DNA from: Candidatus Baldrarchaeum yapensis
Lineage (GTDB): Archaea; Asgardarchaeota; Baldrarchaeia; Baldrarchaeales; Baldrarchaeaceae
Length of the DNA stretch: 32,000 nt
Direction of reading: 5' to 3'
Assembly: GCA_016840465.1 (NCBI GenBank)
Contig: JAEOSH010000012.1
Coordinates: 1 to 32,000 of the forward strand
Shown: one piece after another, positions 5,249 to 19,086 of the stretch
Numbering within the stretch: the first letter of the stretch is position 1
Layout: each line of letters opens with the position of its first letter
Notes under the pieces: model-generated
Database searches by the model: none
Told to the model about the DNA's origin: nothing
The model's input: only the letters and a program-made list of their open reading frames with translations
Position numbers and translations under genes: made by a program

Positions 5249-6268
5249 TTAACATACCCTCGGGATTGGCTCGCCATAGGGCTTCTCCAGAATCCTAGTT
5301 CCACCAATGCTTGTCCTTACTAGAACATAACCTGGCTTCTCCGCTTTCACTTCTCCTATGATTGCCGCGTTTCTCCCATATTTTGTCTTCCTTATTGCAT
5401 CAAGAACCTCCTCTGCCTTATCGTTGCTCACACCTATTACCGCCTTGCCCTCGTTCGTGACCTCAAGGGGATCTATGCCCAGCATTTCGGCCGCTGCCTG
5501 CACTTCCTCCCTTATAGGCAACGCATCCTCCTCTATCCATATGGATACCTTGGATTTTTCGGCCATATCGACCAACGCGGCAGCAACGCCGCCCCTTGTT
5601 GGATCCTTCATCGCTGTTATTCCTCCGACCGATAATGCAGCGTTTATCGTCTCCCAAATTGGTGCAACATCGGACTTTAACTCGGTTTCAAACTCCAACC
5701 CCTCTCTTTTTGCTAAGAGAGCAATTCCATGATCTCCGATGGTTCCGGTTATTATTATTTTATCTCCGGGCTTCAATCCTGAGTCTTTTATTATATGTCC
5801 TCTCTTCACGATCCCTACGCCTGTGGTCGTGATTATTATTTTGTCGACCTGTCCCCGTGGCACGACTTTCGTGTCTCCGGATATGAGTGCAACTCCGACC
5901 TCTTCCGCTGTTTGTGCCATTGATGCCAGGATTTTCTCCAAATCAGAGATAGGAAATCCCTCTTCCAATACCATTGCCGATGTTATAGCTATAGGGCGAG
6001 CACCCATTACGCTAACATCATTAATTATGCCTGCAACCGCCAGTTTACCTATATCTCCACCTGGAAAGAATATGGGATCCACAGTATGGGCATCCGTCGA
6101 GATAACTATCTCATAGTCACCCACTGGTATGGAGGCGCCATCATCCAGATCATCGAGGCCGACGCCACCCGCTGTCCGGAGGCTAAACTTTGGAATTATA
6201 ACGTTTTTTATTAATTCGTCCATTAGAATGCCGCCAGCACCGTGTGCCAGTTCTATCCTCTTTTCCAT
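5249..6268 (-). CDS. hypE: Hydrogenase maturation carbamoyl dehydratase HypE
   Basis: [40 protein letters not shown] and the C-terminal PRVC. Start ATG 6268 preferred over 6283. Confidence 0.95.
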
Positions 6269-14516: not shown

Positions 14517-15449
14517 TCATACTGGAATCTCTATAGGCTTCTCATCCGTGGATACCGGAACATCAGTACGCTTTAACGCCATTAAAATGTCCTTAGGGAG
14601 TACGAATAACGCCTCATGGAGTTCCGGAGAATAATATTCGGTGTAAACACCCCTCTCTTCGAATCTTTTCTTTATAAGATCTTTACTTATACTTCTAGGG
14701 TCTATATGATCTGAAGCAATTATAAACATCCAATAGAGCCCAAAGGATGGAATCCATGCCCCATAAGGCCTGACTATCGAAAAAACCTCCGATAATGTCT
14801 TATAAATCGCAACAAACTCTCTCTGATATACGTATGGGCTCTCACTATGGGTAGTCACGATTCCATTTGAATTAAGTCTCGATTTTATTAATTTATAGAA
14901 CTCAACGGTGTACAGACGGGCTGACTGTCCCGAAGGATCTGTCAAGTCCAGAATTACCACATCAAACTTGTCATTAGTCCTCTCGACGAATCTTCGCCCA
15001 TCCTCTATAAAAATACTCACTCTTTCGTCGTTAAATGCATCCTTATGAACCTCTTTCAAGTATTTTTTCGAAATTTCTATTATTTCCTTGTCCAGATCTA
15101 CAAGAACAACCTCCTTCACGACGTTGTGCTTAAGAACCTCCTCTAATGCCCCTCCATCTCCTCCCCCAATTATTAACACCTTTTCCGGTCTGGGATGGGA
15201 AAAGAGGGATGGATGAACGAGACTCTCGTGGTAAATGTACTCATCGAAAGTCGATAATTGCACCTTTCCATCTATTAGGAGCATTTTGCCAAAGTCTGGA
15301 GATTCGACAATTTCCACTCGCTGATATTTCGTGGTGCCGGAAAATATCACTCTATTTATCTGTACCAGTCGTGAGAGACTCCTAGTGAGCCGCTCATGAT
15401 AAAGCATGCCACCAATGTCGATCGATGATGAAGAGGGCATATCTGCCAC
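14517..15449 (-). CDS. speE: Polyamine aminopropyltransferase (spermidine synthase family)
   Basis: TKYQRVEIV, LLIDGKVQ, DEYIYHESLVHP, VLIIGGGDGGAL, IEDGRRF and DVVILDLTDP. Start GTG 15449 or ATG 15440. Confidence 0.95.
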   Translation of the reverse strand: MADMPSSSSIDIGGMLYHERLTRSLSRLVQINRVIFSGTTKYQRVEIVESPDFGKMLLIDGKVQLSTFDEYIYHESLVHPSLFSHPRPEKVLIIGGGDGGALEEVLKHNVVKEVVLVDLDKEIIEISKKYLKEVHKDAFNDERVSIFIEDGRRFVERTNDKFDVVILDLTDPSGQSARLYTVEFYKLIKSRLNSNGIVTTHSESPYVYQREFVAIYKTLSEVFSIVRPYGAWIPSFGLYWMFIIASDHIDPRSISKDLIKKRFEERGVYTEYYSPELHEALFVLPKDILMALKRTDVPVSTDEKPIEIPV

Positions 15450-15842
15450 CTATCTCTGAAGTGCTGATATTCGCTCTATGGCGCTTCTCAAGTTTAAACT
15501 TATCAGTCCAATCTGCGAGAGTGCATCCGCTCCGGCATATGCAACTAATATGACATTTCTCCCTCCCGCGATCACAATGTAACCATTCGTCCCCCTTATC
15601 GTTATTTCACGCAATTCTCCTCGCTTGAGTTTTTCGGAGACGGTGGACGAGTGTTCATATATTTTGATTATGGCTTCAGCTGTGGGCTCATATGGGATCC
15701 TTTCGATCCCCTCCGCCGCTATCAATTCTCCAGTATTCGAAACAACAATCATTCCCTCAATTGCTGGAATGATCTTCATGATTTCCCTAAGAATTGCCAA
15801 TATCTGCTCTCTGGCCGCCACACGGTCTTCCTCCTTTGACAT
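15450..15842 (-). CDS. Roadblock/LC7 domain protein (divergent, full-length)
   Basis: IEGMIVVSNTG...GELREITIRGTNGYIVI...IGLI roadblock pattern; stop codon abuts the speE start. Confidence 0.85.
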   Translation of the reverse strand: MSKEEDRVAAREQILAILREIMKIIPAIEGMIVVSNTGELIAAEGIERIPYEPTAEAIIKIYEHSSTVSEKLKRGELREITIRGTNGYIVIAGGRNVILVAYAGADALSQIGLISLNLRSAIERISALQR

Positions 15843-15944
15843 CTATGATCTACATTCTCCTGCCAAGTTTTAATTGTAACGAACACCATAAATTAATTGA
15901 GTAACACAGTTAATATTTGATAACCCCAAGGAGCGTTTTCCCCA

Positions 15945-16229
15945 ATGCTATCCGAGGATGTCATTAAGAGCATTCTTGAGAACCTCGGGAAGATGGAAGG
16001 CGTTAAGGGGGTCGTTATCACAACGACGGAGGGAATTCCGGTACACTCAACATTCCCACCAGATGTAACCGAGAAAATATCCGCATTTGCCGCGTCTCTC
16101 TTAGGAAAAGCTAAAGAGATGATCAAGGAAGTGGGTGGCGCAAAGGTTACCTTTATAACACTAGACACGTCGGAAGGCGAACTCTTAATATCAAGTGAAC
16201 AGGAATATGTGATAGCGATCTTGCGGTAG
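15945..16229 (+). CDS. Short roadblock/LC7 protein, DYNLRB-like (94 aa)
   Basis: GVKGVVITTTEGIPVHST signature; ends after the last beta strand with no C-terminal helix. Confidence 0.88.
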   Translation: MLSEDVIKSILENLGKMEGVKGVVITTTEGIPVHSTFPPDVTEKISAFAASLLGKAKEMIKEVGGAKVTFITLDTSEGELLISSEQEYVIAILR

Positions 16230-16284
16230 GAATAAATTTAATACCGGGTTTGCCGTGAAAAATAATGATGTGGACGGTGGTCGA

Positions 16285-16752
16285 ATGGAGCCTAATGTCT
16301 TTGAGAAAATACTAACAAGGCTAATAAAGAGCGAAAGCGGAATAAGACGGGCGATCTTAGTCGATAGAACCGGTCTGACTATCGCCCATGCCTCGAAGTT
16401 CTCATCCTATTATCCGATAGACGTGGAGGGAATAGGCGCTATTGCAAGCGCGATTTTCGTTGGCAGTGAGGAGCAGGGCAAGAACCTTGACATAGGAGAC
16501 CTACAAATGGTGATATCAGAGTTCGAGAACGGAAAAATATTCGCAATCAGCTGCGGACAGGGGGTACTTTGCCTAATCACCGATCCGGATGTCAATATAG
16601 GAATGATAAGGTTGCTCATGAAACGAACTGCTGCAGAATTAGGGAAATTGCTGGATGAGTTCCTATCGGCCACCGTCTCGATTCCTGTAGAGGAGAAGAA
16701 GGAGGAAGAGGAAGAACTAAAGGCAGCCCTCGATGCGCTGGAACAATTATAA
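16285..16752 (+). CDS. MglB-like roadblock protein (putative GAP of the adjacent GTPase)
   Basis: AILVDRTG and NIGMIRLLMKRTAAELGKLL resemble MglB; acidic C-terminal helix; directly upstream of the MglA-like gene. ATG 16285 has a GGTGG SD. Confidence 0.8.
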   Translation: MEPNVFEKILTRLIKSESGIRRAILVDRTGLTIAHASKFSSYYPIDVEGIGAIASAIFVGSEEQGKNLDIGDLQMVISEFENGKIFAISCGQGVLCLITDPDVNIGMIRLLMKRTAAELGKLLDEFLSATVSIPVEEKKEEEEELKAALDALEQL

Positions 16753-16767
16753 TGGTGGCCATAAGAC

Positions 16768-17358
16768 ATGCCAAGAGTTGACCCCCAGGGAAGATTACAC
16801 TTTAAAATAGTGTTCTGGGGTCCCTCTTTATCGGGAAAGACGACATCACTTAGGTGGATATACAATAACGTAGAGGGAATAACTAAGGGGAGATTTGTGT
16901 CGATAGAAGATCCGACAGGCAGAACGCTATACTTCGACTACACGCCTGTCTCCATATCGTCAAAAGTCGTGTTCGATCTCTATACAGTCGCGGGGCAAAG
17001 AAGGCACAAAATACAGAGAAGGAAGGTGCTGGAAGGAGTAGATGGAATACTATTCGTAGCAGATTCGGATCCAGCTCAGCTTCAGGAAAATGAAATTAGC
17101 ATGACCGAATTAAGACAACTGCTAGGAGACAAGCTTGGAAGGGAAATACCACTTGTCGTGTTACTAAATAAGCGAGATCTTCCAAATGCCGTGAGTAAGG
17201 AAACCCTCCTCAATGCCCTTAAGATAGTCCCGGTAAATATTCGCGTTTATGAGGGAATCGCGATAAGAGGGATAGGAGTGAAACAGGCTTTCAAAGCGAT
17301 AGTTCGTGAGGTGCTCTGGAACTATTACCAGCGGGCTAAGCAACAGAAGGCACAATGA
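16768..17358 (+). CDS. MglA-family small GTPase
   Basis: KIVFWGPSLSGKTT (G1), GRTLYFDY (switch I), LYTVAGQ (MglA-type G3 with T in place of D), GVDGILFVADS and LNKRDLP (G4). Confidence 0.92.
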   Translation: MPRVDPQGRLHFKIVFWGPSLSGKTTSLRWIYNNVEGITKGRFVSIEDPTGRTLYFDYTPVSISSKVVFDLYTVAGQRRHKIQRRKVLEGVDGILFVADSDPAQLQENEISMTELRQLLGDKLGREIPLVVLLNKRDLPNAVSKETLLNALKIVPVNIRVYEGIAIRGIGVKQAFKAIVREVLWNYYQRAKQQKAQ

Positions 17359-17385
17359 AAAAGTTTATCCAAAACAGGAGTTTTC

Positions 17386-17793
17386 ATGTTTATGAAGGTG
17401 ATTGAAGTGAGTGAGGTTGTAGGGGTTGAGCCTCAAACACTATCCAAATTACTAAAGGAGTTTACAATGACAGTCCCAGAAATCGAGGGCGCGGCCCTTG
17501 TCACTGATGAGGGACTACCAATAGTGTCCGTTCTTCCAGAGGGTGTTGATGAAACAAAGATTGCCGCTATGACGGCAGCAATTCTATCTCTTGGAGAACA
17601 AACATCTAAAGAATTAGGGAAGGGGTCTCTAGAGCAGGTTTACATTAAAGGGAAGAACGGTTACATAATAGCGATGGATGCGGGATCGAATGCCGTGTTA
17701 GCCGTCATCGCAAGCAGTGAAGCAAAACTAGGGCTAGTTTTGTTTCGCATGGAGCAGCTTGCTGAGAAGATATCAAAGATAATATCTTTGTAA
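17386..17793 (+). CDS. Roadblock/LC7 domain protein (COG2018 type)
   Basis: EIEGAALVTDEGLPI...IAAMTAAILSLGE...ELGKGSLEQVYIKGKNGY...AKLGLV. Possible true start GTG 17407 (GGTGA SD). Confidence 0.92.
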   Translation: MFMKVIEVSEVVGVEPQTLSKLLKEFTMTVPEIEGAALVTDEGLPIVSVLPEGVDETKIAAMTAAILSLGEQTSKELGKGSLEQVYIKGKNGYIIAMDAGSNAVLAVIASSEAKLGLVLFRMEQLAEKISKIISL

Positions 17794-17810: not shown

Positions 17811-18575
17811 ATGAATATTTTAGGGCCAATTTATCGGTTGTATGAATGGCTATTGTGGAGAAAGGTGAGTAAAGGGAAAATTCCACAACACGTTGGTGTA
17901 ATACTGGATGGCAATAGAAGGTTTGCACGAGAGCACGGCCTTGACATCGAAAGTGGTTACCGGAGGGGTGCTGAAAGAGTCAGGCACTTCCTCAAGTGGT
18001 GTTTAGACATAGGAATAAAGGTGATAACGCTCTATGCCTTCAGTACTGAAAACTTTCAGCGCGATGAGCGGGAAGTTAGTATACTTATGAAATTATTAAA
18101 AGAGTACGCAGAAAAGGCGCTAAATGAACCTTACATTTACAAATACAAAGTCCGTATTCGCGTACTTGGAAGAAAATATTTGTTCCCAGAGGAATTAAAG
18201 GAACTAATAAATGAACTTGAAGAGAGGACAAAAAACCATGACAAGTATTTTCTAAACATAGCCCTCGGCTATGGCGGACGAGCAGAAATTGTAGATGCGG
18301 TTAAGAAAATAGTAAGGGAAGCGATTAATGGGAAAATAGATCCCGAAGAAATAGATGAGGACATGATAAGAAGGTATCTTTATACCGATGGGCTCCCAGA
18401 CCCGGATATTATCATCAGAACCTCCGGTGAGGAGAGACTGTCAGGTTTTCTCCTATGGCAGTCAGCATACTCCGAGTTGTATTTTTTAGATGTTTACTGG
18501 CCAGCAATAAGAAAAATAGACTTCCTTAGAGCTATTAGAACATATCAGCAACGGGAACGCAGATTTGGAAGGTGA
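17811..18575 (+). CDS. uppS: cis-Prenyltransferase (polyprenyl diphosphate synthase)
   Basis: HVGVILDGNRRFAR, YAFSTENFQR, YGGRAEI, DPDIIIRTSGEERLSGFLLWQ and RERRFG motifs. Confidence 0.96.
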   Translation: MNILGPIYRLYEWLLWRKVSKGKIPQHVGVILDGNRRFAREHGLDIESGYRRGAERVRHFLKWCLDIGIKVITLYAFSTENFQRDEREVSILMKLLKEYAEKALNEPYIYKYKVRIRVLGRKYLFPEELKELINELEERTKNHDKYFLNIALGYGGRAEIVDAVKKIVREAINGKIDPEEIDEDMIRRYLYTDGLPDPDIIIRTSGEERLSGFLLWQSAYSELYFLDVYWPAIRKIDFLRAIRTYQQRERRFGR

Positions 18576-18579
18576 TTTC

Positions 18580-19086
18580 ATGAAAGAAAAAGAAAAATCG
18601 CTTCTTAAGAAACTTCTCTTCAAGAAGAGAAAAAAGAAGAAAATGGCAGTACTTATAGATTTAACCAATGTCGGAGAGGAGAATAGGATAACCCTTCTAA
18701 ATGAAATAAAAGCTCTTCTACTTTCAATTCCGAAAATGAGAACGATAAGCATGATAAAAATATTTCTGGGGGATAGCGCACCCGAAGGGATAATAGAGAT
18801 GTTCATGGAACTGGGGGTTCCTCCGGTTATAGTACCAGAACATCCGGACATTTATCTCGCATACGAACTTGTAGATATATCCCACTCAGAGAAGTTCGAT
18901 GGAGTGATTTTATACTCGTGTAACAAGAATATCCTCCCAGCACTCAGTAAGATAAAGGAGTCCGATAAAGAACTACTAGTGATCCTCTCAAAGCACGACG
19001 AAATTGCAGAAATTCTGAGATCAATTGCCGATCAAGTACTACAACCGGAACCTCCTCCAACGGAAGAGCAAAAAACAAGTAATTAA
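18580..19086 (+). CDS. NYN/LabA (DUF88)-like protein with degenerate active site
   Basis: AVLIDLTN...PDIYLAYE...FDGVILYSCNKNILPAL...LRSIADQV follows the NYN pattern. ATG 18580 has an SD overlapping the uppS stop. Confidence 0.65.
   Translation: MKEKEKSLLKKLLFKKRKKKKMAVLIDLTNVGEENRITLLNEIKALLLSIPKMRTISMIKIFLGDSAPEGIIEMFMELGVPPVIVPEHPDIYLAYELVDISHSEKFDGVILYSCNKNILPALSKIKESDKELLVILSKHDEIAEILRSIADQVLQPEPPPTEEQKTSN

Follow-up and report, generated by a model that had tools for sequence, protein, structure and literature searches.

What kind of system is encoded where four different roadblock genes surround a single small-GTPase gene in an Asgard archaeon? The locus lies at positions 15,450 to 17,793 of a 32,000-nucleotide stretch of Candidatus Baldrarchaeum yapensis (GenBank assembly GCA_016840465.1, contig JAEOSH010000012.1, positions 1 to 32,000 of the forward strand), hereafter the window. 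An earlier note on this DNA, made from its letters alone, had proposed that the roadblock proteins, RB1 to RB4, form a hetero-oligomeric scaffold controlling a GTPase switch. We find that the GTPase is of MglA type, that RB3 resembles MglB, and that the four roadblocks are old paralogues whose arrangement recurs across Asgard lineages. Probably, the locus encodes a switch of MglA/MglB type inherited from the Asgard ancestor, with RB3 as cognate platform and GTPase-activating protein (GAP) and with the other three roadblocks serving as accessory regulators or adaptors of that switch.

All five open reading frames (ORFs) that had been proposed were recovered at their positions, RB1 on the minus strand and the rest on the plus strand, around a shared divergent spacer:

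RB1, 15450-15842, minus strand: roadblock of 130 amino acids (aa), transcribed divergently from the other four genes.
RB1-RB2 spacer, 15843-15944, no strand: 102 nucleotides (nt), AT-rich, divergent.
RB2, 15945-16229, plus strand: short roadblock of DYNLRB/LC7 type, 94 aa.
RB3, 16255-16752, plus strand: MglB-like roadblock, 165 aa from GTG 16255.
GTPase, 16768-17358, plus strand: MglA-family small GTPase, 196 aa.
RB4, 17386-17793, plus strand: long, CvnB-like roadblock, 135 aa.

The cluster is compact. On the plus strand, gaps of 25 nt (RB2-RB3), 15 nt (RB3-GTPase) and 27 nt (GTPase-RB4) separate the genes, and no further ORFs were found within the five-gene cluster. An alternative RB3 start at ATG 16285 would give 155 aa and agrees with the N-termini of its orthologues. 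Three AT-rich, TATA-like runs can be read in the spacer (15868-15875, 15888-15898 and 15910-15918), and AAGGAG stands directly upstream of the RB2 ATG; the RB1-RB2 spacer is a putative divergent promoter region. All four roadblocks pass the curated Pfam cut-off for Robl_LC7 (23 bits): RB1 at 37.5 bits (E-value 2e-09), RB2 at 61.3 (7.7e-17), RB3 at 45.6 (6e-12) and RB4 at 75 (4.1e-21). The genome (2.27 Mb, 96% complete) holds nine Robl_LC7 matches, and the chance expectation of five-gene windows with at least four of them is ~1e-6; a real, non-accidental multi-gene module is supported.

Judged by its sequence, the GTPase is a true MglA-family protein of group-1 type, not an Arf or a Rag. A phmmer search of the PDB aligned residues 10-184 with MglA of Myxococcus xanthus (9.5e-37) and Thermus thermophilus (7e-36); the next-best family was Arl8, at 2e-09. 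Arf/Ras matches also appear in Pfam, and the NCBIfam candidates EF-G and HydF were rejected at scores far below their cut-offs. The P-loop, GPSLSGKT, spans G18-T25 (nt 16819-16842), and the NKxD motif reads NKRD (residues 134-137, nt 17167-17178). Two hallmarks are common to this protein and the MglA of both species: an intrinsic arginine finger in switch I, where R52-T53 (nt 16921-16926) lie within 'GRTLYFD' and align with MglA 'DRTLFFD', and TxxGQ in place of DxxGQ, where Thr replaces the usual Asp in the G3 motif 'TVAGQ' (T73-Q77, nt 16984-16998), aligned with MglA 'TVPGQ' and ending in the catalytic Gln. Every motif residue is invariant among 17 orthologues from different Asgard classes. 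The earlier designation of an MglA-type GTPase is therefore borne out, both by matches of ~1e-36 to solved MglA and by the invariance of the catalytic hallmarks. Close relatives are all Asgard proteins, and a profile of the orthologues found the GTPase in 250 of the 251 Asgard genomes searched (completeness at least 80%). The best species-representative locus belongs to a Baldrarchaeota metagenome-assembled genome (MAG), where the GTPase is 68% and RB3 76% identical to the window protein. MglA-group GTPases of Asgard archaea are already listed in published surveys (10.1101/2024.02.28.582541; PMC10933270).

RB3 is MglB-like, although no equivalog of Thermus MglB: Pfam returned MAPKK1_Int (8e-08) and NCBIfam the MglB equivalog model NF052242 (1.5e-08), the latter at 34.9 bits and so far below its curated cut-off of 200. 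M. xanthus MglB is the best solved match to the RB3 profile (1.7e-06), and LAMTOR2 reaches ~1e-3. The AlphaFold2 (AF2) model has the order a1-b-b-a2-b-b-b-a3, with a linker modelled at low confidence (139-148) and then a helix (145-164), and Foldseek ranks 1-6 are all T. thermophilus MglB (about 5e-10, best 4.5e-10; template-modelling (TM) score 0.77-0.81). This C-terminal helix (~residues 145-164, nt 16687-16746) follows a variable linker and is conserved, amphipathic and acidic; L155, A158 and L162 never vary in the alignment, and L159 and E163 hardly do. With 47 invariant columns and 67% mean identity in its alignment, RB3 is the most conserved of the four roadblocks and the most constrained of the five proteins. 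The shared fold and length, the linker-plus-C-terminal-helix tail and the best sequence and fold matches speak for an MglA/MglB-type switch.

How old are the four roadblocks? We fetched 80 loci around relatives of the GTPase in species-representative genomes, called ORFs, collected 146 roadblock ORFs with an iterated hidden Markov model (HMM) and assigned each to the best-matching window roadblock. Assignment was clear-cut; for RB3 orthologues, for example, the score is 170-226 bits with RB3 itself but 25-30 bits with the next-best roadblock. A maximum-likelihood tree built from 139 sequences groups every type into a single clade, with support in the Shimodaira-Hasegawa-like approximate likelihood ratio test (SH-aLRT) of 99 for RB1, 99 for RB2, 93 for RB4 and 86 for RB3 (99 once a single crenarchaeal outlier is left out). 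The four paralogues therefore predate the split of the sampled Asgard classes. The window proteins are correspondingly far apart: the best BLASTP pair is RB1-RB4 at 30% identity, followed by RB3-RB4 at 28%, and RB1 and RB2 have no BLASTP match to each other. Both the mutual divergence claimed earlier and the claim that these are not recent duplicates stand.

RB2 belongs with the short roadblocks of DYNLRB/LC7 type. Its profile matches the Odin LCB_4 roadblock 7f8f at 6.7e-39 and DYNLRB1/2 at ~1e-22, with LAMTOR5 at only 0.02 (2.6e-07 in Pfam). Its AF2 model (mean predicted local distance difference test, pLDDT, 91) has the order a-b-b-a-b-b-b and ends after b5, giving the same short architecture without a third, C-terminal helix as DYNLRB/LC7/km23 and Odin-RBLC7 (7f8f); Foldseek places 7f8f first (TM 0.92), then DYNLRB (TM 0.84-0.88). 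What sets RB2 apart is that its gene lies in an MglA operon, a context absent from the structural paper on 7f8f. We know of no dynein in archaea.

RB1 and RB4 are the remaining long forms. RB1 is the fastest-evolving of the four orthogroups (mean column identity 48%). Its profile matches PDB entry 9jq8 at 6.6e-22; this entry, for which we found no describing paper, is the MK-D1 orthologue of RB1 (113/113 residues identical) and holds two identical chains. The NCBIfam candidate CfrA fell far below its cut-off. RB4, which also matches MAPKK1_Int in Pfam, has a profile that hits 7f8m and 9jue at ~3e-31 and CvnB5 (3leq) at 3e-17; NCBIfam RacA was rejected, again far below cut-off. Neither 7f8m (Thor SMTZ1-45) nor 9jue (MK-D1) is an orthologue. 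Compared with the RB4 proteins of Thor and MK-D1 they reach no more than 67-86 bits, and roughly half of the aligned residues of 7f8m are identical, so both are RB4-like paralogues. Against solved structures, the RB1 and RB4 profiles gave no LAMTOR match. The earlier sorting into one short, one MglB-like and two COG2018-like proteins thus holds for RB2 and RB3, but the COG2018 label is imprecise, RB1 and RB4 being separate orthogroups.

We followed the five-gene arrangement through other Asgard genomes in a gene-neighbourhood survey. The complete arrangement, RB1 on one strand and RB2-RB3-GTPase-RB4 on the other, occurs in Baldr (L006), Frey (L003, L007), Borr (L044) and Hermod (L030, L032, L033, L035, L036) loci and, with extra genes inserted, in Thor (L010-L028). 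Jord and Atabey have RB2-RB3-GTPase-RB4, and Hod has RB3-GTPase followed at a distance by RB4. One group of Heimdall loci has RB2-GTPase, and in other Heimdall loci the GTPase gene adjoins a unit of RB4, a UppS-type prenyltransferase gene and a gene for an NYN-domain protein; a clear RB1 was not found in Heimdall, and its RB3-like gene is far more divergent. Over all loci, no pairs are spaced more closely than RB2-RB3 (median gap 21.5 nt) and GTPase-RB4 (17 nt over 37 loci). Wherever a locus holds both RB1 and RB2 the two diverge (21/21), and RB3 shares its strand with the GTPase gene in 35/35 (median gap 191 nt). The arrangement thus recurs across class-level Asgard lineages, contrary to the lack of conservation that the earlier note had named as a refutation, and conserved order, orientation and linkage make a functional link among the five genes well supported. 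Co-occurrence across the phylum is uninformative here, because the components look near-universal; in a component survey of named genomes, RB2-RB4 were present in 5/5 tested and RB1 in 3/5.

Some lineages have taken the cluster apart. Odin keeps RB1|RB2-RB3-RB4 without a GTPase gene between RB3 and RB4 (L088:145-1910; G253:C1:853047-854809), the GTPase gene lying ~145 kb from the roadblock genes. In both cultured Lokiarchaeia (MK-D1 and L. ossiferum), RB2 lies beside RB1 in the same orientation and the other three genes are dispersed, RB3 ~37-47 kb from the GTPase gene and RB4 far off:

Loki RB2-RB1 pair: L087:152-958, MK-D1 chromosome 2144954-2145757; L. ossiferum G252:C1:5953619-5954349.

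With the GTPase gene apart in Odin and genes megabases apart in Loki, co-transcription is therefore not obligatory. Public sequencing runs listed as containing the cluster, or RB3 together with the GTPase, are DNA metagenomes only (possibly the source samples), with no RNA among them. In one Hermod-like MAG (L036:4275-4945), two ORFs of 106 and 99 aa stand in place of a single RB3 gene, with the rest of the cluster intact; either there is a frameshift or an assembly error, or the gene is a pseudogene.

Family assignments, catalytic motifs, fold predictions, paralogue antiquity and conserved gene linkage are established by these results, and a mechanism can be sketched on top of them. As a group-1-type MglA, the GTPase would hydrolyse GTP with its own R52 and Q77. 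By homology, an RB3 dimer would dock on the switch regions and position R52/Q77, which would give it GAP activity, and the amphipathic C-terminal helix of RB3 may make a second, allosteric contact, as described for Myxococcus MglB. MglC is an accessory roadblock protein in Myxococcus. Like MglC and RomY, RB1, RB2 and RB4 would most likely act as dimers of their own, bound to the core of RB3 and GTPase or to targets of that core, where they could tune GAP or exchange activity, or localisation.

An MglA with more than one roadblock has precedents. There are 1:2 MglA:MglB systems (PMC4316618), and MglA:MglB ratios of 1:1 and 1:2 were described by Wuichet and Sogaard-Andersen. RomY is a second roadblock-domain partner of MglB in Myxococcus (PMC9481161), so that the Myxococcus pair is likewise modulated by additional roadblocks. 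In Thor, an MglB-homologue dimer has been modelled with its GTPase (2026 paper). The present locus differs from MglA-MglB of M. xanthus and T. thermophilus in having four roadblock orthogroups per GTPase against one or two, in an order fixed phylum-wide, in the eukaryotic dynein-light-chain type of RB2, and in its context, which holds no Frz, RomR or pilus genes.

Several points weigh against this reading. The RB2 orthologue 7f8f is a published homodimer, and the RB1 orthologue entry 9jq8 contains two copies of the same chain. The five Loki genes are dispersed over megabases, and the Odin GTPase gene lies well away from its roadblocks. The extra roadblocks might instead serve other Asgard small GTPases. 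The cluster is itself part of a longer stretch of conserved synteny, and inherited gene order could explain some of the linkage; this argument is countered by the roadblocks staying with each other or with the GTPase after rearrangement, which one would not expect of unrelated neighbours. Finally, binding, like GAP or guanine nucleotide exchange factor (GEF) activity, stoichiometry and cellular process, is inferred.

Could the four roadblocks instead form an obligate hetero-oligomer of the Ragulator kind? Two heterodimers, for example RB2/RB3 and RB1/RB4, would then stack into a scaffold that holds and regulates the GTPase. We regard this as unlikely, yet it is the alternative that survives best. 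Ragulator (LAMTOR1-5) likewise combines several different roadblock-fold proteins, short and long, with a small GTPase, and Ragulator and EGO both contain heterodimers that pair a long roadblock with a short one or two long ones. Four distinct paralogues are co-inherited here in a fixed order, with RB2-RB3 and GTPase-RB4 nearly contiguous, and roadblocks remain adjacent where the GTPase gene has moved (Odin) or the cluster has dispersed (RB2-RB1 in Loki). A heterodimeric platform would also fit the asymmetric seat of MglA on the MglB dimer (PMC11016934).

The dimer structures point the other way. Single roadblocks were solved as homodimers by Tran et al. (2024, PMC10933270), among them Odin-RBLC7 (7f8f), the RB2 orthologue, for which they proposed a groove that could bind a helix. 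RB2 therefore needs no different partner to fold, and RB1, given the chains of 9jq8, probably needs none either. RB4-like paralogues are homodimeric too (Thor-RB 7f8m, and 9jue by its title, 'Roadblock3 homodimer'). Such homodimers argue against obligate heterodimers of the LAMTOR type, and not against dimer-on-dimer or helix-in-groove assemblies. A complex prediction with two RB3 copies, the GTPase and RB2 as the scored partner gave a median of 0.44, and a control with the GTPase replaced gave 0.38, a result that speaks neither for nor against binding.

Nor do the components look like those of Ragulator. The GTPase is a single-domain MglA that lacks the C-terminal roadblock domain with which Rags dock on Ragulator, there is no gene for a LAMTOR1-like wrapping subunit or anchor, and RB2 lies far nearer to DYNLRB, a homodimer, than to LAMTOR5. 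Pfam does match RB2 weakly to LAMTOR5 and RB3 weakly to MAPKK1_Int/LAMTOR3; these matches are real, yet far weaker than the DYNLRB and MglB relations, and we rejected Ragulator membership on the type of the GTPase and the weak LAMTOR scores. The Ragulator analogy drawn in the earlier note therefore reduces to architecture. As to its hetero-oligomeric scaffold, the conserved linkage is suggestive of one, but the homodimeric RB2 orthologue and RB4-like paralogues and the two identical chains in 9jq8 count against it. A polarity- or nutrient-type function for it we can only infer.

The opposite possibility is that the genes are linked but their products are independent. Only RB3 would serve this GTPase, and RB1, RB2 and RB4 would be homodimers with other targets, such as Asgard small GTPases or cytoskeletal proteins, their genes being old tandem duplicates in a slowly rearranging block. 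The homodimer crystals of the RB2 orthologue and RB4-like paralogues would fit, as would Loki dispersal, the lack of a recognisable RB1 in Heimdall and the separate Odin GTPase, each with the other genes kept. The conserved synteny also takes in clearly unrelated housekeeping genes, and other parts of the genome carry additional roadblock and GTPase genes. We nonetheless consider independence improbable. Tandem duplicates whose functions are unrelated seldom keep order, orientation and spacing of tens of nucleotides over class-level divergence, and the roadblocks that did rearrange still adjoin each other or the GTPase gene instead of drifting singly.

An actinobacterial conservon (CvnA-D), which likewise encodes a roadblock (CvnB) with an MglA-family GTPase (CvnD) and whose CvnB5 resembles RB4, is ruled out as the identity of the locus, as there is no CvnA sensor kinase and no CvnC DUF742 protein, roadblocks number four against one, and the GTPase has group-1-type and not group-2-type features.

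Is the MglA/MglB-type switch with four roadblocks already known from Asgard genomes? The roadblock-Rab-like GTPase-DENN operon (Liu, Makarova et al. 2021), also conserved in Asgard archaea, likewise pairs a roadblock-superfamily protein with a small GTPase, but differs in its GTPase paralogue (35% identity), its DENN protein and its one or two roadblocks. The main text of Liu et al. 2021 presents only ESCRT and roadblock/Rab-like/DENN neighbourhoods, with the present cluster absent, and places most eukaryotic signature proteins outside conserved neighbourhoods. We found no description of a cluster with one GTPase and four roadblocks in a literature search that left subscription-only papers and supplementary tables outside its reach. 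The parts come from known families; what is new is an MglA/MglB-type system with four distinct roadblocks as a fixed, phylum-wide set that includes a member of dynein-light-chain type.

In Asgard archaea, small GTPases and proteins of roadblock or longin type number in the dozens. Tran et al. 2024 (PMC10933270) note that MK-D1 does not as a rule encode its GTPases in operons with roadblocks, so that the two are difficult to match. The present cluster is an exception to the view that genome layout does not reveal which regulator belongs to which GTPase: it joins one defined GTPase to four defined candidate partners, phylum-wide, and both cultured strains have the orthologues. Among the archaea closest to eukaryotes, such a matched set of switch and regulators is rare. 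The origin of multi-roadblock platforms from prokaryotic MglA/MglB thereby becomes directly testable, including how Ragulator-like platforms and the dynein Roadblock light chain arose from it. The locus also supplies a genomic context for two deposited structures, 7f8f (RB2) and 9jq8 (RB1).

The genes next to the cluster in the window are these:

Spermidine synthase, 14517-15449, minus strand: Spermine_synth 4e-57, with zero spacing to the RB1 stop.
Cis-prenyltransferase, UppS-type, 17811-18575, plus strand: Prenyltransf 3.6e-84, starting 17 nt after RB4.
NYN-domain protein, 18565-19086, plus strand: NYN 4.4e-07, with an 11-nt overlap with the UppS gene.

The earlier observation that no sensor kinase or receptor accompanies the roadblocks agrees with these neighbours, and no kinase, receptor, DUF742 or LAMTOR1-like gene was found flanking the cluster or among the recurrent neighbours of the loci. 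The larger conserved block runs from SMC through RB1 | RB2-RB3-GTPase-RB4 to the cis-prenyltransferase, the NYN protein and DUF7121, and further on to subunits of an ADP-forming acetyl-CoA synthetase, a GPN-loop GTPase and a helix-turn-helix (HTH) protein. UppS follows RB4 on the same strand in 30/31 loci (median gap 72 nt), and the RB4-UppS-NYN order is kept in Heimdall (L004, 2728-4748; L047; L057) on the strand opposite the GTPase gene.

In Thorarchaeota, a Sec23/24-like gene stands between RB1 and RB2 in 16 loci (L010-L028), co-oriented with RB2-RB3 and a median of 140 nt upstream of RB2:

Sec23/24-like protein, L026:2109-3740, plus strand: 543 aa, with Sec23_trunk (4.4e-09), Sec23_BS (5.6e-08), zf-Sec23_Sec24 and VWA.

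Asgard Sec23-like proteins showed no nucleotide-dependent binding to Asgard Arf proteins in a 2025 paper that contains no neighbourhood analysis (PMC11914678). For the Sec23/24-like proteins of Thorarchaeota, which those tests did not show to be Arf effectors, the cluster offers a new candidate GTPase partner, and the MglA-type GTPase may be the better one. A bolder picture would make all of this one physical machine in the Asgard ancestor, proto-Ragulator-like, with RB2 (a direct archaeal forerunner of dynein Roadblock) and the other roadblocks assembled on the MglA/MglB core; Thorarchaeota would then have recruited the Sec23/24-like homologue, and the native GTPase partner of Asgard Sec23-like proteins would be MglA and not an Arf/Sar relative. 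We think this a long shot.

In Hod, a prepilin-type peptidase gene (Peptidase_A24 and Arc_PepC_II) lies upstream of RB3 and a gene for a TPR protein downstream of RB4:

Hod loci, L051:3394-4224 (plus strand) and L045:6096-7364 (minus strand): prepilin peptidase / TPR protein entries.

The UppS neighbour, the Thor Sec23/24-like gene and the Hod prepilin peptidase point loosely to membrane or surface processes. If a cellular process is to be guessed, membrane or cell-surface polarity may be the one, because of the prenyltransferase linkage and the Thorarchaeota Sec23/24-like protein.

The solitary Loki GTPase gene has conserved neighbours of its own, a GIFT-domain protein, a metallophosphoesterase and a cupin; these were all that was found in a search beside it for a replacement partner. 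The GIFT-domain protein, encoded at L070:6625-7551 (minus strand) and in 11 other Loki loci, has 308 aa and an IFT52 GIFT domain (2e-11).

In the window itself, the RB1 stop directly abuts the start of the spermidine synthase gene, and owing to this zero spacing the two genes are probably co-transcribed in this genome. The coupling was rejected as a conserved feature: speE is not among the gene clusters that recur in at least four loci, so the link is probably lineage-specific, and in other loci SMC or different genes follow RB1. Elsewhere in the same genome, more roadblock genes lie near GTPase-like genes (G000:C83:18-314 and 5619-5858; G000:C30:40778-41062 and 41594-41866). A paralogue of the GTPase, 35% identical, lies 12 kb past the window's end (G000:C64:44448-44963).

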